Notes under the pieces: model-generated
The model's database searches: none
Seen by the model: the letters and a program-made list of their open reading frames with translations, nothing else
Told to the model about the DNA's origin: nothing
Shown here: positions 43,002 through 59,617 of the stretch, one piece after another
Layout of the letters: each line of letters starts with the position of its first letter
How positions within the stretch are numbered: the stretch's first letter is position 1
Origin: Escherichia phage Murica
Sequence record: NC_041871.1
Direction: 5' to 3' (one strand)
DNA: 64,000 nucleotides
Position numbers and translations under genes: made by a program

Positions 43002-43985
43002 ATGATGACAAAGTTAACTCTTGAGCAAATTTTAACACTAAAGCAACAGGGATACACTAATAGACAAATTGCTCGTGAATTTTTAGGCCGTGAGTCACGT
43101 GAGAGCTGGATCCGACTACAGCTTAAACGTGCACAAGATAATATGTCAGAGATTGTAGGAGAAGCAACGGAGCGCTTCCTTGAAGAGCACAAAGGTGCTA
43201 AAGTTTGGGTGTATGATACAGAGACATCCCCAACAAACGGCTGGTTCTTTGGGCACTATAAGACCAACATTCAAACCTGCGGTATTGAAGTTATGCCCTA
43301 TATGCTAACTTTCGCAGGTAAGTGGTTAGACAGCCCTAGTGTGGTTGACTGCGCTCTTCCAGATTACAAAATGTGGGATGAAGATATTCACAATGATCTC
43401 GAATTGATTCAGGATTTGTGGTATTATCTGGATAAATGCGATGTCGCAGTAGCCCACAATTCAGGTTTTGACTGCGGGTGGGCCAACCAACGATTTGCAT
43501 TTCACGGGTTGCCTCCAACAAGCCCTTACAAAGAGGTTGACACCCTTAAAATGATCAAGAAGGCATTCCGTTTGAATGCAAACACTTTGGAGTATGCATG
43601 CAAATACTTCCAACTGGCCCGACAGAAACTGATTGATCACACATTTGAAATGTGGATCAAGTGTGTCCATGGCGATCTTGAGGCATTTAAACAGATGCGA
43701 GAGTATAATGTTGGTGATATCCTGTCTCTGGAAGGACTGTATTTGCTGGCTCGCCCGTTTGCTAAGCAGCACCCAAACATGTCATTGTACTACCAAGACG
43801 AGGAGCCAAAGGTTCGTTGCCCACGCTGTGGTGGAGAACACTTTCACGAGGAAGAAGCTTTGGCATATACTCAGCTGAGTGCATTTAAAACATACCGCTG
43901 TGAAGGTTGTGGATCTGTTGTTCGTGACCGTAACAACATCCGTACCAGAGAAGAAATGAAAAACACCCTGATTCAGATAATCTAA
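43002..43985 (+). CDS. DEDD-family 3'-5' exonuclease with N-terminal HTH and C-terminal zinc ribbon
   Basis: Exo I VYDTET, Exo II HNSGFD; HTH-like YTNRQIAREF; CPRCGG...CEGCG. Confidence 0.55.
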   Translation: MMTKLTLEQILTLKQQGYTNRQIAREFLGRESRESWIRLQLKRAQDNMSEIVGEATERFLEEHKGAKVWVYDTETSPTNGWFFGHYKTNIQTCGIEVMPYMLTFAGKWLDSPSVVDCALPDYKMWDEDIHNDLELIQDLWYYLDKCDVAVAHNSGFDCGWANQRFAFHGLPPTSPYKEVDTLKMIKKAFRLNANTLEYACKYFQLARQKLIDHTFEMWIKCVHGDLEAFKQMREYNVGDILSLEGLYLLARPFAKQHPNMSLYYQDEEPKVRCPRCGGEHFHEEEALAYTQLSAFKTYRCEGCGSVVRDRNNIRTREEMKNTLIQII

Positions 43986-43993
43986 CAATTATA

Positions 43994-44021
43994 GGGAGGC
44001 TTGCGCCTCCCTTTTCCTTTT
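43994..44021 (+). terminator. rho-independent terminator
   Basis: GGGAGGC-TTGC-GCCTCCC hairpin followed by TTTTCCTTTT. Confidence 0.65.
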
Positions 44022-44030
44022 GGAGGCACT

Positions 44031-44849
44031 TTGAGCAAGAAAGAGTCCAACGACAAATATTACACAAACCCTAAGTATGCAGAATATCTTGTTGGTAAAG
44101 TAAAAGACAAGTATGGGAATTGTGCATACGTTGAGCCTTCTGCTGGAAGGGGTTCTTTTTCAAAACTATTTTCAGAGATACTGTCGTACGATCTAGTACC
44201 AGATCCTGAATTTGAAGGACCAACACAGTGCATTCAGGCAAACTTCTTGGAGGTGCATCCTAAGGCAGATGTCTTCATAGGTAACCCACCATTTGGCAAG
44301 AATTCATCTTTAGCTTGCAAATTCTTTAACCATTGTGCATCATTGCTAGAGCTTGGCGGGGCTATAGCCTTCATCTTGCCACGGACATTTGAAAAAATAT
44401 TTTTTGCAAACAAACTGGACATGTCTATGCACCTTGTCTACAGCGAAAGGTGCCCTAAGAACTCGTTTTTACTTAATGGCAAACCTTACGACGTGCCATG
44501 TGTTTTCCAAATTTGGGAGAAAAAGGCGTGCAATAGGGATCCTGTAGAGATTGGAGAGAATAAGTTATTTTCTTTTAGCACACCGGATGACTACGACTTC
44601 TGTGTAAGACGTGTTGGGTATAACGCTGGAAAAGTATTGGGTGATGATGATCCAAAATCTGAAGAATCTACGTATTTCATAAAATCTTTAGTTGACGGTG
44701 TTGACAGAGTGTTTGCTGAATGCTATTCTTCTTTTCAAGAAGAAGCAGGTAAGACTGCTGGAATGAAGAGTATAGGCAAGAAAGAACTACAATACATTTT
44801 GGAGACCTGGTATGATCAAAAGCATAGACTTGACAAAAGAACTTACTGA
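44031..44849 (+). CDS. N6-adenine DNA methyltransferase (gamma-class, NPPF motif)
   Basis: YYTNP...EPSAGRGSF...IGNPPFG motif order; TTG start after GGAGG (track start 44001 lies inside the terminator hairpin). Confidence 0.6.
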   Translation: MSKKESNDKYYTNPKYAEYLVGKVKDKYGNCAYVEPSAGRGSFSKLFSEILSYDLVPDPEFEGPTQCIQANFLEVHPKADVFIGNPPFGKNSSLACKFFNHCASLLELGGAIAFILPRTFEKIFFANKLDMSMHLVYSERCPKNSFLLNGKPYDVPCVFQIWEKKACNRDPVEIGENKLFSFSTPDDYDFCVRRVGYNAGKVLGDDDPKSEESTYFIKSLVDGVDRVFAECYSSFQEEAGKTAGMKSIGKKELQYILETWYDQKHRLDKRTY

Positions 44850-45270
44850 TGCAAAAGCTTTTGGTGAGACAGCGGTACAAAGAGGCCAGGCGATGGGACT
44901 GGCACTACCTTTCGTCTTAAAAGAGCACTTTACAGATTTTCAACTTATCAAAGGTGATAAGGGAATGCTTATCCTGGAGCATAAGTTGAGTAAGAAACGC
45001 TACAAAGTTGTTTTTAATTCTAAAGCCCCAACAAAACTTGGATTCAGAACTTACAATCTCAACCCATCCTATACTAAGGGTGTTGGAAGGGTAGAACAAC
45101 AGCATTTCAGCGCTAGAGCTTCTTTAGCTCCTTTGATGCTAAATTTCTCAGGGGTGGCTTTAGGATACCTTGATAAGAAAAGAGTTCTTCATGTCCGTTT
45201 CACAGACTTTGTAACGCTTTTAGCTAACAACGAAGTTGATGAAAAGGGACGTGTAAAAACAAACTTCTAA
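44812..45270 (+). CDS. hypothetical protein
   Basis: 152-aa ORF with GGAGAC RBS. Confidence 0.4.
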   Translation: MIKSIDLTKELTDAKAFGETAVQRGQAMGLALPFVLKEHFTDFQLIKGDKGMLILEHKLSKKRYKVVFNSKAPTKLGFRTYNLNPSYTKGVGRVEQQHFSARASLAPLMLNFSGVALGYLDKKRVLHVRFTDFVTLLANNEVDEKGRVKTNF

Positions 45271-45285
45271 TAACGCATAGTATGA

Positions 45286-45489
45286 TTGGAGACTACAATG
45301 ACACTAAAGTTAACAATTCCAGACAGCTTTTCAGAAAACTTTATCCCAGAAATGATGGGTAAGATGCGATCATTGCTTGATCAGATTGAGGAAGCTGTTT
45401 GGGAAGACGATGCTGTAGTGGCTAACGAGCTAGTAGATAAGTGTAAAAGTATTATTGATGCAGTTGAAGAATACCACGGAGGTTTTTGA
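45286..45489 (+). CDS. hypothetical small acidic protein
   Basis: 67-aa ORF. Confidence 0.35.
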   Translation: METTMTLKLTIPDSFSENFIPEMMGKMRSLLDQIEEAVWEDDAVVANELVDKCKSIIDAVEEYHGGF

Positions 45490-46103
45490 TGGATATTATT
45501 GTTCTTAACGCCCCACCCAGCAGTGGTAAGGATCACATTGCAGATCTCTTGTTGGAAGCTATTCCTAACTCACACCACCGTGAGGTTAAGGAGATGCTCT
45601 TCAGTGTGGCAATTAAGGCAGCTGGTGTAACTCCTCAACTCTGGAATGCACTTTATGACCGCCACTACAAAGAAGATCCTTGCCCTTTCTTAATGATAGA
45701 CGGCAAGCATGTTTCTCCGCGAGAGTGGATGATCCATTGTAGTGAAAATCTGATTAAACCTATCTTTGGTGAAGATGCTTTCGGTAAGGCCGCAGTCACA
45801 TCCTTGAAGAAAGATTTCCCTAAAGGTAAAGGGGTTGTTGTTTACTCCGATGGTGGATTCAAAGAGGAGCTGGCATGCCTTAGTGAGTACGCATACAGCA
45901 CAGGTGGAGATCTGTTGTTGTTCCGTATTCACCGTGTAGGATATGACTGGGGAAATGATTCCAGAACCTATCTAAGTCTGGAAAAGAACGGAATAAAAGG
46001 GGTTGAGTTTGATGTTGTAAACCCTGAAGGTGCACCTTGGGAGTGTGCATCGGAGATTGTGTGCAAGTATATTGATGCTAAAGAGGCCCAAGAAGAATGT
46101 TAA
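45486..46103 (+). CDS. putative deoxynucleoside monophosphate kinase
   Basis: N-terminal IVLNAPPSSGKDHIAD resembles the T4 gp1 P-loop LSGVKRSGKDTTAD. Confidence 0.5.
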   Translation: MMDIIVLNAPPSSGKDHIADLLLEAIPNSHHREVKEMLFSVAIKAAGVTPQLWNALYDRHYKEDPCPFLMIDGKHVSPREWMIHCSENLIKPIFGEDAFGKAAVTSLKKDFPKGKGVVVYSDGGFKEELACLSEYAYSTGGDLLLFRIHRVGYDWGNDSRTYLSLEKNGIKGVEFDVVNPEGAPWECASEIVCKYIDAKEAQEEC

Positions 46104-46690
46104 TCGGAATTGATGTAGATCTGACACTGGTAGATTCAGGAACAGCATGGTGGGAGTGGTTGGAGCGTTTGTATGGTCCAGCCAGTAAGACAGTAGCTAA
46201 ACCTTCTAATGGGCTAATGTATTACGATCTGTCAAAGTATTGGCCTGATCGTCCCAAAGAAAACATCATAGGACCTTTTGATTTCTGGAGTGATCCGTTC
46301 CTCTACGACTTCCTTAAGCCTGAAGAGGGGGCTATTGAGGTTATGAAAGATTTGGTGGCTCGTGGTCACAAGCTTGCATTTATCTCGGTATGCAAGAAAG
46401 GTCACCTTGCATCTAAATCAAGGTTCTTAAAGCGTTGGACCAGTGATTTTATGGATCTGGACGATCACACCCAAGGCCACGGCTTCTACGCCACACATTT
46501 CAAAGGGAATGTGGCTGTAGATGTTATAATTGACGACAGGCATGAATACCTGAACCAATTCGCTTCACGACCTGAAGTTATTAAAATCCTAAAAGATACA
46601 CCTTATGAGCAATTCGAGGAGTTAAAGGTCAGTGTTGACTATACCGCTAATAGCTGGTATAAAATAGGAAAATTTTTAGAAGGTATTTGA
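46097..46690 (+). CDS. HAD-family phosphatase (possible 5'-deoxynucleotidase)
   Basis: N-terminal DxDxT motif IGIDVDLTLVD. Confidence 0.45.
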   Translation: MLIGIDVDLTLVDSGTAWWEWLERLYGPASKTVAKPSNGLMYYDLSKYWPDRPKENIIGPFDFWSDPFLYDFLKPEEGAIEVMKDLVARGHKLAFISVCKKGHLASKSRFLKRWTSDFMDLDDHTQGHGFYATHFKGNVAVDVIIDDRHEYLNQFASRPEVIKILKDTPYEQFEELKVSVDYTANSWYKIGKFLEGI

Positions 46691-46691
46691 A

Positions 46692-46892
46692 ATGGGCAGA
46701 TGTTCTAAAGGTGGCGATCCTGTAGTCAGATACGGTGACTGGCTAGAGGTGTATGATCTAGGAGGTAAGCTAGTGTATGCCTCCAGGATCACCCAAGACA
46801 TGTGCTCCGATATGTTCAACAGATACCTTGCATTTAAGGCCAACATAAACCCAGACGAAATTTCCAAAATTAAAACAAGGAGAGCTAAATAA
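46692..46892 (+). CDS. hypothetical small protein
   Basis: 66-aa ORF with RBS. Confidence 0.35.
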   Translation: MGRCSKGGDPVVRYGDWLEVYDLGGKLVYASRITQDMCSDMFNRYLAFKANINPDEISKIKTRRAK

Positions 46893-47875
46893 TGCTAAAA
46901 CTGTGCACTGCAAAGATCATTGCTGACAGCATTTCCGAGAAAGGTAAGCGCATCACCACTTTTGAGCTAGAGTATCCTCGAATTATTCACTCAGAGCTTA
47001 TGACGCACCGAGTGTTCAGCCGAAACGCCATGTCTTCCCGTGCAGTGCCTGTCGGAAAGATGCTGCAACAGATTGTGGAGAATCCGGCAATGCCAGTTCG
47101 CTTCGGTGTAAATAAGCGAGGAATGGAAGATGGTGGGGAACACGATCAAAAGATCCGTGTAGAGTACACTGATATGGAGCTAACTCCGGAAGAGTTTTGG
47201 AAAGAAGCTGCAAAAAACGCCGCTTGGCATGCAGAGAAGTTTGCCCTTGCTGGTTACCATAAGCAAGTATGTAACCGCTTAGTGGAGCCTTTTCAGCGCA
47301 TGAAAACAGTTGTAACAAGCACCGAGTGGAATAATTTTTTCCACCTCCGTTGCTGGCACGATGCGGATCCTACGATTCAGATGTTAGCTAATTGTATGTG
47401 GGAGGCTCTTGTGAATAGCACTCCTGAAATCCTTAAACCGGGTCAATGGCACACTCCATATGTAGAGCACGTTTATTTGGACGGGGAGTTTAACTACGCT
47501 GTACGTGACACAGAAGGAAAGCTCTGCATTCTCGATACTAAAGAAGCTCTGTCTATCAGTGCTAGTTGCTGTGCACAAGTATCTTATCGAAATATTGACA
47601 GCACGTTTGAAAAGGCAGACAGTGTGGCTAAAAAATTGATTGGTGGGGATCGTATTCATGCAAGCCCTTACGAGCACCAGGCAACACCTATGGATCACGA
47701 TAACGCAATGGAACGTTTAAACTACTACCTGTCTTCATGTGAAATCACACAAGACATCAGTACTTGGCAGGAAGGTGTAACCCATCAAGACCGTGATGGT
47801 AAATTCTGGTCTGCCAACTTTTGTGGGTGGGTTCAGCACAGACAACTGCTTAATAACCACTTCGTGAAAGGTTAA
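46892..47875 (+). CDS. thyX: flavin-dependent thymidylate synthase
   Basis: ThyX-like motif ELMTHRVFSRNAMSSRA (HR-x7-S-x-R); sits in the nucleotide-metabolism block. Confidence 0.6.
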   Translation: MLKLCTAKIIADSISEKGKRITTFELEYPRIIHSELMTHRVFSRNAMSSRAVPVGKMLQQIVENPAMPVRFGVNKRGMEDGGEHDQKIRVEYTDMELTPEEFWKEAAKNAAWHAEKFALAGYHKQVCNRLVEPFQRMKTVVTSTEWNNFFHLRCWHDADPTIQMLANCMWEALVNSTPEILKPGQWHTPYVEHVYLDGEFNYAVRDTEGKLCILDTKEALSISASCCAQVSYRNIDSTFEKADSVAKKLIGGDRIHASPYEHQATPMDHDNAMERLNYYLSSCEITQDISTWQEGVTHQDRDGKFWSANFCGWVQHRQLLNNHFVKG

Positions 47876-47904
47876 TCCTATCACAGCGATAGGTAACTTT
47901 TGTG

Positions 47905-47933
47905 TTGACTAATAGTATTAGATAATCTATAAT
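47905..47933 (+). promoter_or_regulatory. promoter TTGACT-17-TATAAT
   Basis: near-consensus hexamers with 17-bp AT-rich spacer; the downstream gene start was moved accordingly. Confidence 0.6.
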
Positions 47934-47973
47934 AATGGCTCACTTTGTTGGTGAGCCAGAAATGGAGACAGAT

Positions 47974-48435
47974 ATGAGTAATGTTATGATTCCTAAAAAG
48001 ACATTTATTTCAGTTACTTTGGATTTCCTATCTACCGTTCCCGGGTTTAACGTTCGCACACGAAACGGTCTCCGAGCTGCACTCTTTGCCGTAGGGTTTG
48101 ATTTAAAAAGTATTGATGTTCTTCGTGGAAAAAACGTTCGATGCAAAAATAAGCCAACACATTATCGAAAGGCAGATGTATTTGCTGGTGTCATGCGTGC
48201 AGACTTTAGATACCCGCAAATGTATAACGGTGTAGATATTTTAGATGTGGATAAAGCACCTGGTGAGGCAATGCTTGTTCAAGATCTTCCGTATGATATT
48301 CCTGTAGAGGATCGTGTTAATGTAAGAAAGTATACAAAACAATCTGAAAAGGCTGAAGATATTCATATTGTTGATGAACCTTTCAATTTTGAAGATCTGC
48401 ATCGCCTGGAAAAATTATTCGGTATTGAAAGCTAA
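47974..48435 (+). CDS. hypothetical protein
   Basis: ORF track 47935..48435 trimmed to the ATG after GGAGACAGAT, downstream of the promoter. Confidence 0.4.
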   Translation: MSNVMIPKKTFISVTLDFLSTVPGFNVRTRNGLRAALFAVGFDLKSIDVLRGKNVRCKNKPTHYRKADVFAGVMRADFRYPQMYNGVDILDVDKAPGEAMLVQDLPYDIPVEDRVNVRKYTKQSEKAEDIHIVDEPFNFEDLHRLEKLFGIES

Positions 48436-48445
48436 GGTGGTGAAG

Positions 48446-48676
48446 ATGAGTCATAACTCCAAGTGGAAGGATCTTGGTTTTGCAAGTCGGTCAGAGTATG
48501 TTGGTTGGCTTTGGTTCAACGGCCTGACAAACGATATTAAAATGTATGATGATGTTTATTATGACGAGTATACAGGCAAAATTATAAATATCTCTGTAGA
48601 AGAGGATACCTTTATCCAGCAAGATACTGATACCTGCCTTGATAAATACGTTGATGAAGTGGAGGAAGCAAATTGA
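48446..48676 (+). CDS. hypothetical small protein
   Basis: ATG after AAGGTGGTGAAG; coupled to the nrdA start. Confidence 0.35.
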   Translation: MSHNSKWKDLGFASRSEYVGWLWFNGLTNDIKMYDDVYYDEYTGKIINISVEEDTFIQQDTDTCLDKYVDEVEEAN

Positions 48677-50988
48677 TCACCAAGGTAATTAAAAGCAACG
48701 GATGTGAAGTGGCATTCGATCCAGAACGTTTAAATAAGGCAGCTATTTTCGGTGACGACGGTAACGGCAATTGGTCACATATTGCACTGGATGCATACAA
48801 ACGACTGTATGATGGATGTACAACCAAAGAAGTTAACCAAGCTATCATAGACTCCTGTGTTAGCCGTAAAGACGAAGCACATTCCCGTATGGCTGGTCGT
48901 GTTCTTATTGGTCAGATTTATAAAGAGGCTTTTGGAGGGTTTACAAAGATCCCTTCCTTACCATCATTTTACAACGACATGGTTGAGAAAGGGTATTGGG
49001 AGGATATGGGATATAGCTTTACCGAGCTAAACACTTTAGACGCTGTTATTGACCACAGTAAAGATCTCGGTTATGGCTATGCAGTCCTTAAACAGTTTCG
49101 CGACAAATACGGGATCAAGGATACTCTTAAAGACACCTTGTTTGAATCTCCCCAGATGATGTTTATGGGGATAGCAATGGCTGTCATGAAGAATATGCCG
49201 AAAGAACGTCGTATCAACGATGTTGTAAAATTATACACTTATCTGTCCGACTTAAAGATCAATGCCCCGACACCGTACTTAAACGGGCTGCGCACAGGTA
49301 AGACAGGGTATGCATCTTGTTGTGTAATAAAAGCTGACGATACAGCAAAATCTATTGGTGTGGCACGTGAAGTTGCGTACACAATGACGGTTAACCAAGC
49401 AGGTATCGGCTACTATTTATCATCAAGATCTGCAGGTGATGGTGTTCGCGGTAACACTATTAAACACATGGGTAAGATTCCATATTATCGAGGTATTGAC
49501 GCTGGGGTTAAGGAGAACAGGCAACAATCACGTGGCGGTTCTGCAACAGTATCATTCCTTGCACTAGACCCGCAGATTGATGAGCTAATCCGCTTGAGAA
49601 ACCCTATGACTGTTGCTTCAAAAAGAATCAACACCATGGACTACTCCATCGGTATTAATAGGTCGTTTATCAACCGTGTGGCTAAGAATTTAGATTGGAT
49701 GCTTGTTTCTTATAAGCACGCTCCTCAACTGCATGAGGGTATCTTCACCATGTCTATGGAGGAGTTTGATGCAGAGGTTGATCGTATTGCTAAAGATGAC
49801 AGTATCCCTAAAACATGGATCCGAGCCAGAGATCTTGCTGTTGAACTGATCACGCAGCGTACTGAGGTGGGAAGGCTGTATGTATACTGGACAGATGAGA
49901 TGAATAGACATACACCTTTTAAAGATGTGATCTATTCAAGTAACCTGTGTGCAGAAATAGCCCTCCCTACAAAAGGCTATTCAGATATGCGTAATATCTT
50001 CAAGTACGATGCTGATGATGGAGAGGTTGCATTGTGCTTCCTGTCATCTCTTGTAGCTGGAAGGGTTACTCCAGAGGAGTATGAGGATGTTGCATACTAC
50101 ACGGTGCTTATGATTGACAATGTTATGGAAATCATGACATATCCGTATGAAAATATGGAAAGCACAGTTAAAAAACGCAGATCCATCGGGGTTGGCCTTA
50201 CCAATGTTGCACATTTTATTGCCAGCCACAAGGTTACTTACGGATCTCCTGAAAGTAAACAGCTTGTTCACGATCTTGCAGAACTTCACAGCTACAGCTT
50301 GCATAAGGCAAGTTTACGGTTGGCAAAAGAGCGTGGTGTCTGCGAGTGGATGCATAAAACAAAATATCCAGAAGGTTGGTTACCAATCGACACCTATAAC
50401 AAAGAGGTCGATAGCGTGGTGAAAGATCCTTCTCTTAAACAGGATTGGGAAGGGTTACGTAAAGAAATTATTGAAAATGGTGGGCTACGTAATAGCGTTC
50501 TTGAAGCATATATGCCTAATGAAAGCTCTTCGCTGGCAACAAACACCACTAACGGGGTTTATCCTGTCCGTGAGCACATTATCTTTAAAAAGTCGCCACA
50601 AGGGCAGGTGCTGTTTATCGTTCCTGACTATGATGAGTTGAAAGAGTATTACACCTCGGCTTGGGACGTTGATACTAACGACATGATCGATATGTATGCT
50701 GTGATTCAAAAATTTACAGGTCAGGCAATCAGCGCGGATTTATACATAGATTACACCAAGTTGAAAGATGGTAAAATTTCAATGAAGGAGCAGCTAGGGT
50801 ACCTTATCCGTGCCACTAAATTCGGGATGAAGACATGGTATTATTTAAACTCCAGGGTTGGTGCTGGTGACTCATTGGCAGAGGAACTTCATGCCAAGAA
50901 ACAGGCTGAAGATGAAACCAGAAAGAACTACCCTTTGATTGCAGATAGTTCGGTTGAAGATCCGTATTGCGAAAGTTGTGCACTATAA
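48673..50988 (+). CDS. nrdA: ribonucleotide reductase class I large subunit
   Basis: N-terminal ATP-cone, NLCAEI active-site region, C-terminal CESCAL tail; TTG start with GGAGGAAG RBS. Confidence 0.9.
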   Translation: MITKVIKSNGCEVAFDPERLNKAAIFGDDGNGNWSHIALDAYKRLYDGCTTKEVNQAIIDSCVSRKDEAHSRMAGRVLIGQIYKEAFGGFTKIPSLPSFYNDMVEKGYWEDMGYSFTELNTLDAVIDHSKDLGYGYAVLKQFRDKYGIKDTLKDTLFESPQMMFMGIAMAVMKNMPKERRINDVVKLYTYLSDLKINAPTPYLNGLRTGKTGYASCCVIKADDTAKSIGVAREVAYTMTVNQAGIGYYLSSRSAGDGVRGNTIKHMGKIPYYRGIDAGVKENRQQSRGGSATVSFLALDPQIDELIRLRNPMTVASKRINTMDYSIGINRSFINRVAKNLDWMLVSYKHAPQLHEGIFTMSMEEFDAEVDRIAKDDSIPKTWIRARDLAVELITQRTEVGRLYVYWTDEMNRHTPFKDVIYSSNLCAEIALPTKGYSDMRNIFKYDADDGEVALCFLSSLVAGRVTPEEYEDVAYYTVLMIDNVMEIMTYPYENMESTVKKRRSIGVGLTNVAHFIASHKVTYGSPESKQLVHDLAELHSYSLHKASLRLAKERGVCEWMHKTKYPEGWLPIDTYNKEVDSVVKDPSLKQDWEGLRKEIIENGGLRNSVLEAYMPNESSSLATNTTNGVYPVREHIIFKKSPQGQVLFIVPDYDELKEYYTSAWDVDTNDMIDMYAVIQKFTGQAISADLYIDYTKLKDGKISMKEQLGYLIRATKFGMKTWYYLNSRVGAGDSLAEELHAKKQAEDETRKNYPLIADSSVEDPYCESCAL

Positions 50989-50995
50989 TTTTAAA

Positions 50996-51014
50996 GGGGC
51001 TTCGGCCCCATTTT
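50996..51014 (+). terminator. terminator-like hairpin after nrdA
   Basis: GGGGC-TTCG-GCCCC followed by ATTTTAG. Confidence 0.5.
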
Positions 51015-51027
51015 AGAGGTTAGAATA

Positions 51028-52116
51028 ATGGCTGTATTTAATGCTGAGAACACCGCTCATAAAACTGGTGACTATCCGCTGTTTCTAGGACAGCAAATGG
51101 GTATGTATGACTCTATCAACAAAAAATATCCACAACTGTTTGAACTATACAAAAAACAAAAAGAGCAAGATTGGGCAGAGGATGAAGTGGATTTGTCGCA
51201 ATCTATTTCAGATTTTGTAACATGCTCCAAGTCAACTTATGACGTGATGGTGCAGACCTTGATGTGGCAATGGGAGGCTGATAGCGTTGCGGCAAGATCG
51301 ATCATCTGCCTCTTTTCACCATTCATCACTAATAGTGAGCTTTTCACTCTATTGATGAAACAGTCAGAGATTGAAGTTCTTCACGCACTAACTTACTCAG
51401 AGATTGTTAGACAATGCCTCCCAAATGCCCGTGAGATTATAGAAGAGATTCAGGAAAACCAAAACGTTCTGAGCAGATCTGGCGTTATTGTCAAATACAT
51501 GCAAGAGCTTGAGGTTATTGGTGCAAAATACCGACTGGATCCTTCTAGTGTTGAAGAAGATATTGTGCGGAAATGCATTCTTAGAGCGCTTTTTGCACTT
51601 TTAGCCCTGGAAAGTATTGAGTTTATTGCAAGTTTTGCATGCACTTTCGCAGTAGCTGAACAGGGTATCTTTGTTCAGGTGGCGCAGCTTGTTCAAAAAA
51701 TCATGCTTGACGAAATGCTGCATTCGAAAGGTGATTTTGCCATCATTGATATCCTGCTTAATGATCCCGCATGGGAGAAAAGCTTCCTTGAGATAAAGGG
51801 GGAGTTAAAAGAGATTCTTGATGAAGTACGAACCAAAGAGTACGGTTGGAGTGACTATATTTTCAGCGAAGGAAGAGCGATTATAGGTCTTAACTCACCG
51901 TTGCTTAAAGAATGGGTTGACTATAACTGCTCACCGATTTATGATTACTACGACATCGACAAAGACTTTGTGCCGCCAACAAAGGACCCGCTACCGTTTA
52001 TGCAGGTGTGGATGAAACCTTCATTGCAACAGACGGCAAACCAAGAAATGTCGAACACTGACTACCGCGTCAACACAACTGTTAATGACGCTGAAGAAGA
52101 AATTTGGGAGTTTTAA
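51028..52116 (+). CDS. nrdB: ribonucleotide reductase class I small subunit
   Basis: N-terminal pattern FN...P.F.G...G.Y....F.EL...Q..DW..DEVDL recalled as T4 NrdB-like. Confidence 0.85.
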   Translation: MAVFNAENTAHKTGDYPLFLGQQMGMYDSINKKYPQLFELYKKQKEQDWAEDEVDLSQSISDFVTCSKSTYDVMVQTLMWQWEADSVAARSIICLFSPFITNSELFTLLMKQSEIEVLHALTYSEIVRQCLPNAREIIEEIQENQNVLSRSGVIVKYMQELEVIGAKYRLDPSSVEEDIVRKCILRALFALLALESIEFIASFACTFAVAEQGIFVQVAQLVQKIMLDEMLHSKGDFAIIDILLNDPAWEKSFLEIKGELKEILDEVRTKEYGWSDYIFSEGRAIIGLNSPLLKEWVDYNCSPIYDYYDIDKDFVPPTKDPLPFMQVWMKPSLQQTANQEMSNTDYRVNTTVNDAEEEIWEF

Positions 52117-52119
52117 TAC

Positions 52120-52398
52120 ATGAGCTGTGAAAAATCTTTTTTCTTTATTATTTACGGTAAAGATAACTGCCCACATTGTGTAAGAGCAAAAGAATTTGCA
52201 GTCAGTAAAGGTCTGCCTTTTGTATATAAGACACTTGGCGAGGGTTACACAAAAGAAGAGCTTATTGAGAAGTGCAGTCCAATCGTACCCAGAACGTTGC
52301 CGCAGATCTTCTTAGAAAGCAATCTTGAAAGTGTCCATATAGGCGGTGCCGACGATTTCATCTCTTTTGTTAAGAATGGTTTTGGAGAGAAAAAGTGA
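52120..52398 (+). CDS. glutaredoxin-like redoxin
   Basis: 92 aa with CPHC active-site motif after a beta strand. Confidence 0.65.
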   Translation: MSCEKSFFFIIYGKDNCPHCVRAKEFAVSKGLPFVYKTLGEGYTKEELIEKCSPIVPRTLPQIFLESNLESVHIGGADDFISFVKNGFGEKK

Positions 52399-54518
52399 AA
52401 GTTGTAAAACGGGACGGTAGAGAAGAGGTCTATAACGGAATTAAGGTGATCAAGGCGGCAGAGTCCGCCTTACTTGAGTCTGGACATACTGAAGAAGAAG
52501 CTTACCGGATCGCTTGTGCGGTTAATGAAGTTGTTGCTAACAATCTACCAACCGACCAGTGCACAATCTCTGTAAAAAATATCCATATCCTTGTTGAAGA
52601 TGCTCTTATGGATATGGGTTTAAAATGTGCAGCCAGAGAATACATCCAGTATAGACAGACAAGAGATAATAACAGAGAGGCAGGTGGAAAACTGCTTGCA
52701 GATATTAGTGGCTTCTTGGATCGAACTTGTGATGAATTTACAAAAGAAAACGCAAATAAGCCTACCAATCATGTACACACTCATCGTGACCTGCTTGCAG
52801 GCATCCTTAGCAAACACCTTGCATCAACACAGATCCTGCCAGACCGTGTCTCAGAAGAGCACAATAAAGGCTTCATCCATGTGCATGATCTTGACTACTT
52901 GATCAGTCCGTTAACAAACTGTTGTTTGGTAAATTATCCAGATATGTTGGAAAACGGATTCAACATTGGTAACGCCCATGTCAGTAAGCCGAAGTCAATA
53001 GGGGTTGCAACAACAATCCTTAGCCAAATCTCTAGTGCGGTAGCTAGTGCTCAATATGGGGGTCAGACTATGAGCCATATTGATCATTATCTGGCACAGT
53101 ATGCTGAGGCGACTTATGAGAAGAACCTTAAATTTTGCCAGGAACATTGGTTGCCAGATGCTGAGACTGTTGCAATGCAGATGACAGATAAAGACGTATT
53201 TGACAGCATGCAGACTTTACTCTATCAAATCAATACGTTAACTTCTGTCAACGGGCAAACCCCATTCATCACATTAAGTTTAGGTCTGGACACCTCAGTC
53301 TTTGGTAGAATGATTACCAAAAACTACTTGAAAGTCCACAAAATGGGTCTTGGTGAAGAACGTATCACACCTGTGTTCCCTAAAGTGTTGTTCTTCCTAG
53401 AAGAGGGTGTCAACATGAACCCTGGAGATCCTAACTATGATTTGAAACGATTAGCTCTGGAATGCTCTGCAGAGCGGATTTATCCTGACTTTGTTTCTGT
53501 TCCACTAAATCGTAAAGTGACAGGCTCGACAGATGGCAAAGTAACGAGCATGGGTTGCCGGAGTTTTCTTAGCAAATACAGTGACTTGGAAACAGGCGAG
53601 GAGAAATATCTTGGCAGATTTAACTTAGGCGTTGTTAGCCTTAACCTACCAATGATTGCGGCAAAAGCTAAGACGGAAGGTGTTGATTTCTTTGCAGTTC
53701 TTGACGAATACTTGGATCTTGCATACGAGGCTCACCTTGTAAGGGTTAACCGTCTAAAAGGAACAAAGGCAGGGCAGAACCCCATCATGTGGTGTGAAGG
53801 AGCTCTTGCTCGCCTGGATCCTGAAGAGAGTGTTGATAAACTCTTCTATGACGGGTACGCTTCCATCAGTATTGGGTATATTGGTGTGTATGAAACCTGT
53901 CAGATTTTGGGTAGAGAGGGTGACAAGGCTTTAGCTCTTGGAATCCTTCAGCACATGAGAGATGCTTGTGAGCGATACAAGAAGGAAAGTAGACTAGCGT
54001 TTAGCTTGTACGGCACTCCTTCTGAGAGTCTATGCTATAAAGCTGCAACCTGTCTGGATCGTGAATATCCGGAAGTGTTGAAGCACGAGCATGAATATCT
54101 CACCAACAGTTTCCATCAGCCAGTATGGATAAATAGCTCTCCTTTTGATAAGTGGGAGTATGAGGAAGGTTTTGCTATGATCTCCTCTGGTGGCAACATC
54201 GGATACGTAGAGACACCTAACCTGAAAAACAACTTGGATGCTTTAGAGGCTCTTGTTGACTTCGGGTATAAACACATTATGTATTTTGGTATTAACCAAC
54301 CTGTGGATAAATGTCTCAAGTGTGGTTTCTCTGGTGAGTTCAGTGCAACAGCTAAAGGGTTCTGCTGCCCTGCGTGCGGATGCCACGATGAACAATATAT
54401 CTCAGTGATCCGAAGAGTGTCTGGATATCTTTCCAGTCCTAACTCCCGTCCTTACAATAAAGGTAAGCAAGCGGAAGTTATCGAGCGAGTTAAGCACTAC
54501 GGAAGTTGTGGTTGCTGA
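52395..54518 (+). CDS. nrdD: anaerobic ribonucleotide reductase class III
   Basis: N-terminal ATP-cone; C-terminal Cys cluster CLKCGF...CCPACGC and glycyl-radical motif RRVSGYL. Confidence 0.85.
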   Translation: MKVVKRDGREEVYNGIKVIKAAESALLESGHTEEEAYRIACAVNEVVANNLPTDQCTISVKNIHILVEDALMDMGLKCAAREYIQYRQTRDNNREAGGKLLADISGFLDRTCDEFTKENANKPTNHVHTHRDLLAGILSKHLASTQILPDRVSEEHNKGFIHVHDLDYLISPLTNCCLVNYPDMLENGFNIGNAHVSKPKSIGVATTILSQISSAVASAQYGGQTMSHIDHYLAQYAEATYEKNLKFCQEHWLPDAETVAMQMTDKDVFDSMQTLLYQINTLTSVNGQTPFITLSLGLDTSVFGRMITKNYLKVHKMGLGEERITPVFPKVLFFLEEGVNMNPGDPNYDLKRLALECSAERIYPDFVSVPLNRKVTGSTDGKVTSMGCRSFLSKYSDLETGEEKYLGRFNLGVVSLNLPMIAAKAKTEGVDFFAVLDEYLDLAYEAHLVRVNRLKGTKAGQNPIMWCEGALARLDPEESVDKLFYDGYASISIGYIGVYETCQILGREGDKALALGILQHMRDACERYKKESRLAFSLYGTPSESLCYKAATCLDREYPEVLKHEHEYLTNSFHQPVWINSSPFDKWEYEEGFAMISSGGNIGYVETPNLKNNLDALEALVDFGYKHIMYFGINQPVDKCLKCGFSGEFSATAKGFCCPACGCHDEQYISVIRRVSGYLSSPNSRPYNKGKQAEVIERVKHYGSCGC

Positions 54519-54521
54519 TTC

Positions 54522-54551
54522 TTGACAAAAGCCACAAGGATGTGGCATATT
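54522..54551 (+). promoter_or_regulatory. promoter TTGACA-18-CATATT with CCACA-N4-TGTGG palindrome in the spacer
   Basis: -35 at 54522-54527; palindrome 54532-54545 ends in a TG-containing extended -10. Confidence 0.45.
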
Positions 54552-54581
54552 ATTGACACACAGTGAGCTAGGAGGTGCAGT

Positions 54582-54698
54582 ATGTCATCAGGTATTTATA
54601 AAATTTGCAAGTGCGGCTGTAGTTGCAATCTTCGTTGGTGCAAGGCACTAGACGATTTTATTTGGCATTGCCCTAAATGTGATGCGGAGTATCTATGA
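54582..54698 (+). CDS. small Cys-rich zinc-ribbon-like protein (38 aa)
   Basis: not in the ORF track (below 60 aa); GGAGG RBS then ATG; CKCGCSC...CPKCD; stop overlaps the nrdG ATG. Confidence 0.35.
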   Translation: MSSGIYKICKCGCSCNLRWCKALDDFIWHCPKCDAEYL

Positions 54699-55168
54699 AC
54701 ATTGTCGGATACGCAGAAATATCTTACACCGAAGGGCCAGGTATTAGAACTGCCTTGTGGGTATCTGGGTGCCCACACGCTTGCCCTGGTTGCTTTAATC
54801 AGGCATTTTGGTCAAAAGATAAGGGGAGGGAGTTCACTGAAGAAGACTTGCAAAAAATCTTGTCAGGTTTAGATAACCCGTCTGTGTGCGGTATCTCTCT
54901 GCTGGGTGGAGAACCCTTAGCATACTATAATGAGCCAGATATTATTAGCCTGATGGAGAAAATTAAGGAAAAATTTGGTGACAAGAAAACTATTCTTGTA
55001 TATACTGGGTTCACATTTGACCATATCTCTAGTGATGTTCTTAAACTGGCTGATATCATCATTGACGGTAAGTATGTAAAAGATTTACCAACCAAGAAAC
55101 CGTTCCGAGGCAGTGATAACCAAAGAATGTTTAAAAAAGTATCAGGCGGTTGGGTTCAGGTAGACTAG
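54695..55168 (+). CDS. nrdG: anaerobic ribonucleotide reductase activating protein (radical SAM)
   Basis: N-terminal Cys cluster GCPHACPGC characteristic of NrdG. Confidence 0.8.
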   Translation: MNIVGYAEISYTEGPGIRTALWVSGCPHACPGCFNQAFWSKDKGREFTEEDLQKILSGLDNPSVCGISLLGGEPLAYYNEPDIISLMEKIKEKFGDKKTILVYTGFTFDHISSDVLKLADIIIDGKYVKDLPTKKPFRGSDNQRMFKKVSGGWVQVD

Positions 55169-55171
55169 TTG

Positions 55172-55201
55172 TTGACAAAGCTTTGTTTAGATAGGTATAA
55201 T
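55172..55201 (+). promoter_or_regulatory. promoter TTGACA-18-TATAAT
   Basis: consensus hexamers immediately after the nrdG stop. Confidence 0.6.
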
Positions 55202-55232
55202 TATCGTAAAATGAAAGCAGAGGAGGTGCCAA

Positions 55233-55346
55233 ATGGCTAAAAAAGCCTTGAAGAAGGCGTACAAGAAAGAGATTGCGCTTGAGCTTAAGAAAAAACACAA
55301 GCGTGAAAAGAAACATCATGAAGATGAAGAGGGGGTGCAACAGTGA
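55233..55346 (+). CDS. small basic protein (37 aa)
   Basis: not in the ORF track; GAGGAGG RBS; Lys-rich MAKKALKKAYKKE... Confidence 0.3.
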   Translation: MAKKALKKAYKKEIALELKKKHKREKKHHEDEEGVQQ

Positions 55347-55693
55347 CACAAGAACGTATCGATTTGGCTAATAAGTTTGTAGATCTCATTTTGCCACGGT
55401 TAGTTACTCAACATGCAGATGCTATTTCTACTAATCTTGATGGCTTACGCCTAATGCTGAATCGCACAGATGACCCTCGTATTCGGGCTGATTTAGAAGC
55501 CTCTGCCAACAAACTGGAAAAGTTCTTGCAAGTAGACACGCAAGAAGCCTTGCACAAGATTATGGTGGAAGGTTTCTCTAAAGAATTTACCATTAAAGAG
55601 CTTAAGGAGCTGATCCACCAAGAAGAGATGAATATCCGAGTTCAGGCTGTTGCAAGCAGCATGGAAGCGGCTATTGAAAAACTGTTGCAGTAA
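55343..55693 (+). CDS. hypothetical protein
   Basis: 116-aa ORF, GTG start. Confidence 0.4.
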   Translation: MTQERIDLANKFVDLILPRLVTQHADAISTNLDGLRLMLNRTDDPRIRADLEASANKLEKFLQVDTQEALHKIMVEGFSKEFTIKELKELIHQEEMNIRVQAVASSMEAAIEKLLQ

Positions 55694-55731
55694 AAGTACT
55701 TGGCACATCTCAATCTGAAAGGAGTCCCAAC

Positions 55732-56520
55732 ATGGGTCGAGCTAAAGAAACAAAACGCATGCGTGATGAAGCTAGAGAGGCTCGCAAATCTGATCGCCTG
55801 CGTAAGGCTGCTGAGAAATTTGCTGACGAAAGAGAGCACACCGCTCCAGCTCTCCGACCAATGAATAAGAAGCAGCAAAAGTATCTTGATTATCTAGGGT
55901 CACGTAAGATTATTATTGTAAACGGTGTGTTTGGATCCGGTAAGACATTCATGGCATCTGCATATGCAGGTGATCTTCTGCGTAAGAACGAGATTGATAA
56001 GATTATTGTTGCACGTCCTTACGTTCAGACAGGAAAGACTTCAGGATTTAAACCTGGAAATGCAATGCAGAAACTGTGGCCCTATCTTCGAAGCATGATG
56101 GACACGATTTGTCGTCGTGTTGGCAAAGGTGCTTTTGCCGCAATGCTGGGAGACGGTCAGAACAGCCGTATCGAGATTTGTGAAGTTGAAAGCATTCGTG
56201 GTCGTAGTTTCGATGAGCGATGCTTTGTCCTGATTGACGAGGCACAGCAAACTAACCCTGAAGAAATGTTGTCAATTATCACAAGGATCTCTGATCAAGC
56301 CACCCTTGTAATTATGGGTGATAATAGCCAACGTGACATCCCTGGTAAATCTGGCCTTGCATGGGTGACGGATTTCTTTACTCGTCATCCAGATCCTGAG
56401 GTTGGAATGATCAGCTTTGATAGTCCAGACGATGTCGTTCGTTCCGGGTTGGGTCGTCAGATCGCACTCAATCTTATTGATGATCGTGCAAATCATATTT
56501 GGACCCCTGTTTCCGAGTAA
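55732..56520 (+). CDS. phoH: PhoH-like ATPase
   Basis: Walker A GVFGSGKTF, Walker B LIDEAQ; AAGGAG RBS. Confidence 0.8.
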   Translation: MGRAKETKRMRDEAREARKSDRLRKAAEKFADEREHTAPALRPMNKKQQKYLDYLGSRKIIIVNGVFGSGKTFMASAYAGDLLRKNEIDKIIVARPYVQTGKTSGFKPGNAMQKLWPYLRSMMDTICRRVGKGAFAAMLGDGQNSRIEICEVESIRGRSFDERCFVLIDEAQQTNPEEMLSIITRISDQATLVIMGDNSQRDIPGKSGLAWVTDFFTRHPDPEVGMISFDSPDDVVRSGLGRQIALNLIDDRANHIWTPVSE

Positions 56521-56525
56521 TACAG

Positions 56526-56546
56526 AAGGGTGGTTATTCCACCCTT
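56526..56546 (+). terminator. hairpin after phoH (no U-tract; weak terminator or RNA processing site)
   Basis: 8-bp stem AAGGGTGG/CCACCCTT with 5-nt loop. Confidence 0.3.
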
Positions 56547-56564
56547 AAATATCTAAAACAGTTG

Positions 56565-56593
56565 TTGACAAATAGGTAAGCTTTAGATATTAT
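56565..56593 (+). promoter_or_regulatory. promoter TTGACA-17-TATTAT
   Basis: consensus -35 and near-consensus -10 upstream of the 56622 gene. Confidence 0.55.
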
Positions 56594-56621
56594 TATCGGA
56601 CAAAACAGAGAGAAGGACAGT

Positions 56622-56933
56622 ATGGCTACAATACAAGAGAAACTGAATAAAATATACTGCCTGTTTGTCTATAACGGCGAGACAATTTTGGCAAATAAGG
56701 GATCCAAGAATGTGTGGACCAAGGACAGCGGTGGTAATATAATTAACTTAGCGTTGCTACGTGAGCGCCGACACAGATTCTTTATCGAGTCTAGAATTAT
56801 TGAAAGCAGCACTTGCTACAGAACAGGCGATAAAGTAATTGTTGACAATGATACGTGGTATGTGGTAGACTGGCAATCATTGAGTTGTGATGCTTCTGAC
56901 AATCGTAAGTATTCCATAGTGATTGCTAAATAA
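56622..56933 (+). CDS. hypothetical protein
   Basis: 103-aa ORF with RBS; contains an internal promoter-like element at 56842-56871. Confidence 0.4.
   Translation: MATIQEKLNKIYCLFVYNGETILANKGSKNVWTKDSGGNIINLALLRERRHRFFIESRIIESSTCYRTGDKVIVDNDTWYVVDWQSLSCDASDNRKYSIVIAK
56842..56871 (+). promoter_or_regulatory. promoter-like TTGACA-18-TGTGG-TAGACT inside the 3' end of the preceding ORF
   Basis: same TTGACA..TGTGG architecture as at 33473 and 38800; about 120 bp upstream of the ClpP-like gene. Confidence 0.35.
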
Positions 56934-56993
56934 AGGTAAATGTGAATCAGGTTTAAATAAATAGCTTTCAACTTCCAATATTAAGGATTTCTC

Positions 56994-58043
56994 ATGAATT
57001 TAACACCTCGCAGAACCATGGTACACGGCATGAAAGAAAAACAGAACGGTTTCGAACCTATGAGTAATAAAATGTTTGGTATGCCGGGCGGTATCATGGA
57101 AACATACAGCTACCCAACACCTGTTGTTGACCACGTTCTTTATATCGACGATTTGGAAGACTTACAAGATCATATGTCTCGCCTGCAGACGATCCGTATG
57201 GCTCAGCCTGAAGAAAGCATTCGAGTGATCATTAACAGCCCTGGTGGTTGCGTGCACATTGCGATGGCTTATCTGCAGGCATTCCGCGAGTCTCAGGCAA
57301 GCGTTGTTGCACATGCTGAAGGAATGTGCTGCTCTGCGGGAACAATCTTATGGCTGGGTTGCAAAGAACGCACTGTGGCTCCGGACACAGAGTTTATGTT
57401 CCACTACTATCAAGGTGGCACTTATGGTAACGGTGTGAACATGAATACTCAGGTCAGCTACTGGAAAAAACGTTTTGAACGCCTGATTGAAAAATACTAC
57501 GGTGGGGTGCTGACAGAAGATGAGATCGCATCCATCACAGCTGGTGGCGAAGTGTGGTTGGACGGAGAAGAGCTGGCAGCACGCACTGGAGCTATTATTC
57601 TGGATGAAGGCAACATACAACGCATCCAGAACGGACAAAAACCGAAAAAGCTTCTGGCAAAAGGTGATGAAGAAGGCGTGTTAGGTGAAGCAGGTCTCCC
57701 GGAGATTCACCAGTGCACATCTTTAGATGAGTTAGTTCATGCTGTTGAATCTGCAAAAGCGGGTGGTTCGAAAGGTGATGTTCACACTGTGTTCCTGAAT
57801 CTGCAGATGGAAAGTGGCGAGACCGTCAGAATTGCCCTGGGTGAGATTACTTCAGAAGATCTGCAGAGATTCTCTGTCGTTGAACTTCAGGATATTCTGT
57901 CTCAATTGAAGACTACTCTGAACGGCGGTGAAGAGGTTAAGGTGAAAGATAAGACTCGCAAGCGTCTGGTGGACAATATTATTAAAACAGCAAAAGAGCT
58001 CAATGAAAAAATCCTGGGTGCAGGAATTGTCGAAGAAGCTTAA
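56994..58043 (+). CDS. ClpP-family serine protease-like protein with C-terminal extension
   Basis: IINSPGG, GMCCSAG (Ser) and MFH (His) motifs in ClpP order within the first 180 aa; about 170 aa of extra charged C-terminal sequence. Confidence 0.6.
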   Translation: MNLTPRRTMVHGMKEKQNGFEPMSNKMFGMPGGIMETYSYPTPVVDHVLYIDDLEDLQDHMSRLQTIRMAQPEESIRVIINSPGGCVHIAMAYLQAFRESQASVVAHAEGMCCSAGTILWLGCKERTVAPDTEFMFHYYQGGTYGNGVNMNTQVSYWKKRFERLIEKYYGGVLTEDEIASITAGGEVWLDGEELAARTGAIILDEGNIQRIQNGQKPKKLLAKGDEEGVLGEAGLPEIHQCTSLDELVHAVESAKAGGSKGDVHTVFLNLQMESGETVRIALGEITSEDLQRFSVVELQDILSQLKTTLNGGEEVKVKDKTRKRLVDNIIKTAKELNEKILGAGIVEEA

Positions 58044-58057
58044 ACATTAATTCTAAA

Positions 58058-58079
58058 GCCCTCTTCGGAGGGCTTTTAT
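58058..58079 (+). terminator. rho-independent terminator
   Basis: AGCCCTC-TTCG-GAGGGCT followed by TTTAT. Confidence 0.6.
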
Positions 58080-58094
58080 GATCTGGAGATTTGC

Positions 58095-58628
58095 ATGACT
58101 TGTGCTAGAAAACCTGATGAACAACGTAACGCCTACGATGAGTATGTGACACCGGAGTGGTGTGCAGAAGGGCTGTATGACCTTATTCAGTTCCCAGAAG
58201 ACTGGACCTACTTAGAGCCTTGCAGGAATAGTGCCTCAGGTGTGTTCTACTCCCGTATGCCGTTAGGATCTGCATGGGGAGAAATACAAGAAGGTGTTGA
58301 CTATCTGAATACAGAATACAACCATGTTGACTGTATTATCACCAACCCACCATACAGCCTGGCTCGTGAGTTTGTAGACAAGGCGTTGAAAGATGCTGAC
58401 GTAGTTATTATGCTTTTGCGTCTTAATTTTCTGGAAAGCAAAGCCAGATTTGAATGGTGGCTTGATAATGCACCTACTACTGTGATCACAATATCTAAGC
58501 GTCCATCATTTCAATCAAACGGCAGAACTGACGGGCAAGCATATGCATATTTTGTGTGGGATAAGAAAAACCGTTTAGACTTGCCGCCGTTTATGTGGTT
58601 GGCACCCCCAGAGGTAGACCTGAAATGA
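58095..58628 (+). CDS. small N6-adenine methyltransferase-like protein (NPPY motif)
   Basis: 177 aa with TNPPY motif IV. Confidence 0.5.
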   Translation: MTCARKPDEQRNAYDEYVTPEWCAEGLYDLIQFPEDWTYLEPCRNSASGVFYSRMPLGSAWGEIQEGVDYLNTEYNHVDCIITNPPYSLAREFVDKALKDADVVIMLLRLNFLESKARFEWWLDNAPTTVITISKRPSFQSNGRTDGQAYAYFVWDKKNRLDLPPFMWLAPPEVDLK

Positions 58629-58909
58629 AAATGAGTGCTAAGGACAAATTACACCATCTAGCGCTAAAACGCCCTGTAACGCTCCCTGACGAACTTAACT
58701 CCATTTATGATGCGATTGTAGGGGAGATACAAAATAAAGCGTTAGCAGGCTTTCTGGGGTGCGGATTTTCGATAAATCTACCCTCGCATCTCTCAGATTA
58801 CTTCCCGCACATTGTTGGAGATTTAAGGGCAGGAGGTCTGCAGGTAGATGTTGTTGGCATCTCCCCAGAGAAAAATAATACGGTTGCCTACTTGACAGTA
58901 ACCTGGTAG
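58625..58909 (+). CDS. hypothetical protein
   Basis: ATG overlapping the preceding stop (ATGA), RBS GAGGTAGACC. Confidence 0.35.
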   Translation: MKMSAKDKLHHLALKRPVTLPDELNSIYDAIVGEIQNKALAGFLGCGFSINLPSHLSDYFPHIVGDLRAGGLQVDVVGISPEKNNTVAYLTVTW

Positions 58910-58945
58910 TTGTGTATTGTTGTTTTCAACAAGAGGGGGTCATTT

Positions 58946-59185
58946 ATGTACAAGTCATTTTCAATCTACTCAAGACAGGCGAAACACTACACAGAGATCC
59001 TGATCACTCAGAAAAAATCTGTGGAAGGTGAGTGGGAATATCACCATAAAATGTTGCGTCCAGACTGGGTTTTTGATAGACTTATTGCTATGATCCCTCT
59101 CGGAGAAGTATACCCTCTGACAGCCCATCGCGATGCTTGGGATTTAATTGATTACATAGATTCATTTAAGGAGCCTAGATTATGA
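58946..59185 (+). CDS. hypothetical protein
   Basis: ATG after AAGAGGGGG (track start 58910 is TTG). Confidence 0.35.
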   Translation: MYKSFSIYSRQAKHYTEILITQKKSVEGEWEYHHKMLRPDWVFDRLIAMIPLGEVYPLTAHRDAWDLIDYIDSFKEPRL

Positions 59186-59580: not shown

Positions 59581-59617
59581 TAATTTATCTTACCAGGGAC
59601 GGTAGGTAGGAGGTAGC

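Follow-up and report, generated by a model that had tools for sequence, protein, structure and literature searches.

The closest described relative of the genes considered here is the GATC methylase gene of Bas51 (Escherichia phage WalterGehring, MZ501111), a phage of the BASEL collection whose whole genome was used as the reference in this work. Bas51 mutants escaping the retrons Asa1 and Squ1 were selected and all map to one adenine methyltransferase gene; re-engineered D69G, D79G and T83P alleles abolish defence and retron triggering, expression of the methylase by itself is toxic, and the protein triggers Retron-Squ1 in the native Serratia host (PMC12548924, PLoS Biology, 2025). A second N6-methyladenine (m6A) mark in the same DNA, GTm6AC, was attributed to no gene by these authors (PMC12548924). 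Outside phages this mark is made by M.HpyAXII of Helicobacter pylori, a gamma-class enzyme that threads on M.TaqI and has its motif IV at residue 87 (PMC2588503). Here we analyse two genes in a 64,000-nucleotide stretch of Escherichia phage Murica (NC_041871.1), which we call the window: open reading frame (ORF) A (44031..44849, + strand, 272 amino acids) and ORF B (58095..58628, + strand, 177 amino acids). Their products are probably two active orphan DNA N6-adenine methyltransferases, dependent on S-adenosylmethionine (SAM), which jointly mark every GATC and every GTAC of the phage genome.

A megablast search with window positions 43000-46000 and 57000-60000 returned ~119 phage records, all of them rV5-like Vequintaviruses (90-99.8% nucleotide identity), with Escherichia phage vB_EcoM-Pr121LW as the best match (99.8%) and rV5 at 97.6%. 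By its sequence the window belongs to an rV5-like Vequintavirus, and Bas51 is 98-99% identical to it. This is a well-studied phage group in which the annotation of both genes as methylases dates to 2006. ORF A corresponds to rV5 ORF100, a ‘putative DNA N6-adenine methyltransferase’ with an identical start, and many deposited records annotate ORF B as an N6-adenine or DNA methyltransferase. Vequintavirus genomes with both methyltransferase annotations share 97-99.8% nucleotide identity with the window. A preliminary description of the window had placed both genes at the positions given above, with NPPF and NPPY motifs and with the ORF A start that is annotated in rV5, and in these respects it was accurate. 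It had counted two methyltransferases. That number is too low for the phage, since close relatives carry two further methyltransferase-like genes outside the window: Bas51 has four, of which two have counterparts in the window (bas51_0200 for ORF A, bas51_0176 for ORF B). The extra pair, at 64456..65781 and 67042..67806 of Bas51, comprises a type III Mod-like gene of family PF01555 and a ‘Dcm-like C5 cytosine methyltransferase’ that has no Pfam match.

ORF B and the methylation of GATC

Native nanopore sequencing of wild-type Bas51 found 1405 methylated adenines in GATC, 509 in GTAC and 576 in other contexts, and in the T83P mutant 35, 511 and 349 respectively (source table of PMC12548924). 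Set against the site counts of the Bas51 genome [703 GATC (1406 adenines) and 258 GTAC (516 adenines)], these figures mean that both motifs are ~99-100% methylated in Bas51 virions. The presence of m6A at specific motifs of virion DNA, on which the preliminary description had staked its reading, is thus documented in a phage 98-99% identical to that of the window. In T83P, 35 of the 1406 GATC adenines are still methylated (~2.5%) and ~97% are unmethylated, from which it follows that host Dam covers just ~2.5% of the phage GATC adenines in infection.

Among the four methyltransferase-like proteins of Bas51, bas51_0176 alone combines D69, D79 and T83. It is the protein required for virion Gm6ATC, as measured on Bas51 DNA, and the trigger of Asa1 and Squ1. 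ORF B shares 175 of its 177 residues (98.9%). The two differences, Q32P and V174A, both fall at non-conserved positions, and ORF B retains D69, D79, T83 and NPPY, together with the same gene neighbours, a ClpP-like gene on one side and the ‘glycosidase’ gene on the other; it is the orthologue of bas51_0176. Because the diagnostic D/D/T residues, the 98.9% identity and the conservation of the family all agree, ORF B can be predicted with high confidence to be the writer of Gm6ATC. From the same identity, it would also be expected to trigger retrons Asa1 and Squ1 in the window phage.

ORF B starts with ATG and encodes a single-domain N6-adenine methyltransferase. An N-terminal YVTP (residues 17-20) is followed by a degenerate motif I, EPCRNSASG (residues 41-49, 58215..58241), which reads EPCxGxG in distant relatives. 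Beyond it lies the segment D69-D79-IITNPPY (residues 69-87, 58299..58355), which holds D69, D79 and T83; IITNPPY occupies residues 81-87 and the motif IV NPPY 58344..58355. TP and TNPP are invariant among 313 homologues, and in the family alignment D69 is conserved in at least 90% and T83-N84-P85-P86 in all. The protein belongs to phrog_799 (‘DNA methyltransferase’, 1e-66), and a search of the PDB by sequence returned noise alone. The AlphaFold model [predicted local distance difference test (pLDDT) 89.6] consists of one Rossmann domain and lacks a separate recognition domain; its structural matches include type I HsdM, CamA, Dim1 and KsgA, with no Dam-type enzyme in the top 50.

Two groups of described enzymes invite comparison. 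The T1-type phage Dam proteins (PF05869; TIGR01712, phage_N6A_met) are likewise small (~165-180 amino acids), lack a separate target-recognition domain and run in the order N-terminal xTP, motif I, NPPY; ORF B matches them partially in the motif IV region, and one distant ORF B homologue carries PF05869. ORF B differs in its degenerate motif I, in forming a separate cluster (phrog_799) and in scoring below both curated cut-offs (PF05869, 19.3 bits against 28.1; NCBIfam TIGR01712, 16.2 bits against 97). Another sub-threshold Pfam match is EcoRI_methylase at 20 bits. ORF B thus appears nearest, as a distant relative, to the T1-type phage Dam proteins, and is best filed as a phrog_799 member and bas51_0176 orthologue. 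E. coli Dam, T4 Dam and DpnM (alpha-class, PF02086) share with it the product, Gm6ATC on both strands; their motif order and size are different, ORF B having 177 residues and no insert domain, and no Pfam match of ORF B to PF02086 was obtained at E ≤ 1. We read the resemblance, from motif order and the modelled fold, as functional convergence and not as membership of the alpha class.

In the mechanism that we propose, ORF B would act as a minimal single-Rossmann-domain enzyme of phrog_799 which methylates the GATC adenine of both strands while the phage replicates, a period in which host Dam would contribute almost nothing to the GATC marks. This step has been shown experimentally in the 98.9% identical orthologue bas51_0176.

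ORF A and the proposed assignment of the GTAC mark

ORF A is 98.2% identical to its orthologue bas51_0200, with five substitutions, none of them in invariant columns. Its linear order is motif I, NPPF and a conserved C-terminal region of ~130 residues, which is the gamma-class order. Motif I, the SAM-binding loop, is VEPSAGRGSF (residues 34-43, 44130..44159), and motif IV, which binds the adenine in catalysis, is NPPF (residues 85-88, 44283..44294); the N-terminus carries DKYYTN (residues 8-13), and D54 follows. A database search found 782 homologues, in which EPSAGxGxF, GNPPFG and further columns are invariant. In an alignment of 34 diverse homologues, E35, P36, S37, G39, G41 and F43 of motif I and G84, N85, P86, P87, F88 and G89 around motif IV are all invariant. 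The protein falls into phrog_5172 (‘unknown function’, 2e-129). ORF A and ORF B each weakly match the other's PHROG family, which marks them as distant relatives.

The AlphaFold model of ORF A (pLDDT 92.3) has M.BseCI, CamA and M.TaqI as its top Foldseek matches in the PDB (E ~1e-7), and these three enzymes, together with MmeI, align with it over 226-251 residues, beyond the Rossmann core. M.TaqI, M.BseCI and CamA are larger (380-580 against 272 amino acids), so that the recognition region of ORF A is much the smaller, and their sequence identity to ORF A is only 15-19%, with Pfam models of the Eco57I/N6_Mtase type remaining sub-threshold. By motif order, motif content and modelled fold, ORF A is predicted to be a gamma-class DNA adenine methylase, and its subfamily (phrog_5172) is a compact gamma-class group that lacks curated annotation. 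M.HpyAXII resembles it at the level of class, with motif IV at residue 87 against residue 85 in ORF A, and offers a functional analogue of what is proposed below; it differs in length (331 against 272 amino acids) and in being paired with a PabI-family restriction enzyme, whereas ORF A is an orphan. The models of ORF A and ORF B both match solved adenine-N6 methyltransferases. Given their many homologues, invariant columns, PHROG matches and confident models, neither gene is a chance motif match, and the preliminary identification of a gamma-class NPPF enzyme and a small NPPY enzyme is borne out.

Bacterial relatives of ORF A bear on its substrate. In 17 of the 80 bacterial loci surveyed that contain an ORF A homologue, a conserved protein of ~210 amino acids is encoded immediately 3' of it on the same strand, at about 4770..5450 of each locus (L012, L031, L034, L036, L039, L042, L043, L049, L050, L055-L057, L063, L064, L067, L076 and L087, the last from Litorimonas sp. 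RW-G-Af-16). This partner carries the motifs HGKxFE, D...PTSIK (D...SxK-like) and LNPKxDSKxQRRLQCS, and one homologue-partner pair has type I hsdM/hsdS genes and a transposase gene as neighbours. The layout resembles that of a type II restriction-modification (R-M) pair and would support action of the ORF A family on DNA. The partner has no match in Pfam, NCBIfam or the PDB, even with a profile, none to the PabI family, and offers no clue to specificity; it is a candidate new family of restriction endonucleases. Around the bacterial loci the observed/expected ratio of GTAC, 0.72 where the partner is present and 0.80 where it is absent, is uninformative, and in ~140 kb no 6-bp palindrome is convincingly depleted as restriction avoidance might leave it. 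No copy of the partner came up when the window and Bas51 were searched in six frames with its profile.

Several observations count against ORF A being a DNA methylase. Its best Pfam score is below the curated cut-off (Eco57I, 16 bits against 25.3), NCBIfam gives no match, and some sources label some of its homologues ‘predicted RNA methylase’. A search of the PDB by sequence found nothing, and PF26055, which is listed for some homologues, was not reproduced in our Pfam search. The label would fit an enzyme that modifies RNA, placing m6A in rRNA or tRNA like METTL5 or TrmN, or one that modifies protein. The structural matches that favour such a substrate span the Rossmann core of ~150 residues alone, whereas the DNA enzymes align over 226-251 residues; the two-gene layout with a nuclease-like partner in 17 of 80 bacterial loci, one of them beside type I HsdM/HsdS, speaks for DNA, and phage DNA carries a GTAC mark that needs a maker. 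We regard a substrate other than DNA as very improbable.

The GTAC mark is unchanged by mutation of the ORF B orthologue (509 methylated adenines in the wild type, 511 in T83P). E. coli K-12 is not known to encode an adenine methylase for GTAC, and GTm6AC should for that reason be made by the phage. ORF A is the best candidate for its writer and probably is the enzyme responsible, an assignment reached by elimination and from architecture. It is favoured because the M.TaqI/M.BseCI architecture is typical of enzymes that recognize short palindromes, M.HpyAXII included, because its catalytic motifs are intact and strongly conserved, and because type III Mod-like enzymes, the kind encoded by the other adenine methylase gene of these phages, normally recognize asymmetric sites. 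ORF A would then combine an N-terminal catalytic domain with a C-terminal target-recognition region and write a second, independent mark.

That other gene is the main competitor. bas51_0070, encoded outside the window, is a 441-residue methylase of PF01555 (4e-42), a third bona fide N6/N4 DNA methylase, and Mod-like genes of this type are present at 95-100% identity in ~85 of the ~119 Vequintavirus records. Its orthologue in the window phage might make the GTAC mark, ORF A having another specificity or being weakly active or inactive on DNA. GTAC is palindromic, so an enzyme working on one strand would still mark both, and ORF A could account for part of the residual methylation outside GATC and GTAC. 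The closest solved relatives of bas51_0070, however, are type III Mod subunits (6k0w, 1e-28; EcoP15I Mod, 2e-24). As a rule, the sites of these subunits are short and asymmetric and are methylated on one strand. The ~349 residual sites in 140 kb are about the number expected for a 5-bp asymmetric motif, and ORF A has both the architecture of known 4-bp palindrome enzymes and a full set of invariant catalytic motifs. A Mod-like origin of the GTAC mark is therefore unlikely in our judgement, if a good deal less so than an RNA or protein substrate for ORF A.

Three facts detract from the assignment of GTm6AC to ORF A: it chooses among three candidates by elimination, 349 methylated adenines of the ‘other’ class persist in T83P, and the methylome comes from Bas51 and not from the window phage. 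A lead that took the structure 1EG2 for M.RsaI, a GTAC enzyme, and so pointed to the beta-class third methylase was discarded: 1EG2 is M.RsrI, and M.RsaI itself makes N4-methylcytosine (PMC2588503). A literature search on Vequintavirus methylomes, RsaI/KpnI resistance and GTAC-specific phage enzymes found nothing beyond PMC12548924. The only new points here are the proposal that ORF A writes the GTAC mark and the candidate restriction-enzyme family beside its bacterial relatives. The value as discovery is small, the genes having long been annotated and one of them characterized genetically and by native sequencing in 2025. ORF A offers a cheap and testable candidate for the GTAC mark.

Restriction, retrons and the possible role of the two marks

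Neither methylase belongs to an R-M system in the phage. Profile searches of the neighbouring genes found no restriction enzyme next to ORF A or ORF B, and within the reach of profiles the absence of an adjacent endonuclease is as first described. The neighbouring genes code for a DnaQ-like exonuclease subunit, a dNMP kinase, a ClpP-like protease and small conserved phage proteins without known function; the sole nuclease-like protein among them is the DNA-polymerase exonuclease subunit.

The ratio of observed to expected palindromes was computed for the window, for Bas51 and for 100 kb of E. coli K-12. No 4-bp palindrome of the window is depleted more strongly than GTAC (99 observed, 207 expected, ratio 0.48, z ~-7.5), which is depleted in Bas51 as well (ratio 0.59, z ~-8.7); in E. 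coli K-12 it is not (ratio 0.94). GATC stands at expectation in the phages (ratios 1.01 and 0.99). The depletion of GTAC points to a GTAC-directed pressure, possibly restriction, on the phage, and an anti-restriction purpose of the methylases is plausible. The benefit would lie in a site-specific protection of injected and replicating DNA: methylation of GATC would block enzymes of the MboI/DpnII type, and methylation of GTAC those of the RsaI/PabI/HpyAXII type as well as GTAC-containing 6-bp sites such as that of KpnI. There is a cost, too. The GATC methylase is also a liability, in that it triggers two retrons and is toxic alone, and in the window phage the enzyme would be sensed by retron defence systems in the same way.

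A protective purpose has evidence to answer. A strong depletion of GTAC together with its complete methylation is not what simple protection predicts. In the BASEL study, Vequintavirinae proved ‘exceptionally susceptible’ to the R-M systems tested. None of those systems targets GATC or GTAC, so that the two results together allow protection only of a site-specific kind. Finally, titres of the methylase mutants are apparently within a few-fold of wild type on a laboratory host (PMC12548924 data); such titres give no sign of a fitness role and are what is expected of an accessory function.

The preliminary description had taken the two enzymes to protect against more than one host specificity or to serve an epigenetic role. 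Its observation is confirmed and its interpretation partly supported: GATC and GTAC are two real specificities and GATC is tied genetically to the ORF B orthologue, while the link between GTAC and ORF A is the one argued above by elimination and architecture. The methylases could also be active with a main role other than anti-restriction, such as avoiding MutH or SeqA on unmethylated or hemimethylated GATC, timing packaging or transcription, or self-marking. In P1, among other phages, packaging and regulation are known to depend on Dam. Host Dam alone leaves ~97% of phage GATC adenines unmethylated, so the phage actively brings its GATC sites back to a host-like state; phage DNA does not avoid GATC, and Vequintavirinae show no general resistance to R-M systems. 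On the other side stand the apparently near-wild-type titres of the mutants, and such a role explains neither the GTAC mark nor its phage-specific depletion. We consider a role of this kind possible but doubtful, and an anti-restriction benefit remains our preferred account of the two marks.

A further idea arises because near-complete methylation of GTAC coexists with its two-fold, phage-specific depletion. ORF A would be the founder of a compact gamma-class GTm6AC family whose bacterial members are paired with the ~210-residue restriction-enzyme family, and the phage mark could be a self-label against a phage-encoded methyl-sensitive nuclease that destroys the unmethylated host chromosome, as in chloroviruses, and not a shield against host enzymes alone. 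We mention it as speculation with very little chance of being right.

Methylation of two 4-bp motifs at ~100% has consequences for restriction mapping and cloning, for nanopore basecalling and for predicting the host range of therapeutic rV5-like phages. A GATC methylase that is a possible shield and also a retron trigger is relevant to the choice or engineering of phages against hosts with such defences.

Gene context and other features of the window

Upstream of ORF A lies a GC-rich, terminator-like hairpin followed by a T-run, AGGGAGGC-ttgc-GCCTCCCT (43993..44022, + strand; stem-loop 43993..44012), which looks like an intrinsic terminator closing the upstream exonuclease-subunit gene. A Shine-Dalgarno sequence, GGAGG (44022..44026, + strand), is placed 4 nucleotides 5' of the TTG at 44031. 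A longer ORF A beginning with the TTG at 44001 was considered and rejected, that codon being inside the hairpin; for this reason and from the position of GGAGG, TTG 44031 is the true start. Downstream, ORF A overlaps by 38 nucleotides with an ORF of 152 amino acids (44812..45270, + strand; phrog_9938, function unknown). This ORF was tried as a phage copy of the bacterial ~210-residue partner and rejected (hhalign probability 0.1).

Between the ClpP-like gene and ORF B a second hairpin can be read from the sequence, AAAGCCCTC-ttcg-GAGGGCTTT (58055..58076, + strand), and a Shine-Dalgarno sequence GGAGA (58085..58089, + strand) precedes the ATG by 5 nucleotides. Each methylase gene therefore has its own Shine-Dalgarno sequence and its own GC-rich hairpin upstream (43993..44022 and 58055..58076), an arrangement which suggests that the two may be separate transcriptional or translational units inside the replication/nucleotide-metabolism module.

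On the far side of ORF B, the gene at 59857..60381 (+ strand) is 100% identical to bas51_0171, a ‘putative glycosidase’ of which the R87* allele contributes to the escape of Bas51 from retron Asa1 (PMC12548924). It has no Pfam match and belongs to a PHROG family of unknown function, so the label ‘glycosidase’ is unsupported here.

Some 20 GenBank records named ‘Campylobacter phage’ (MG0656xx, host C. jejuni) share 97-99% nucleotide identity with window positions 43000..46000 and 57000..60000; they are probably mislabelled or contaminant isolates. The GC skew of the window changes sign near 34 kb. Genes left of this point lie on the - strand and genes right of it on the + strand, and here the structural block diverges from the block of replication/nucleotide-metabolism genes. 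In the window, the anaerobic ribonucleotide reductase is encoded by a single unbroken ORF of 707 amino acids (52395..54518, + strand). The Bas51 gene (113603..116310) is annotated as two joined pieces around a homing-endonuclease gene, and the terminase and DNA polymerase genes of Bas51 are likewise annotated as joined pieces; the mobile-intron content varies between the window phage and Bas51.

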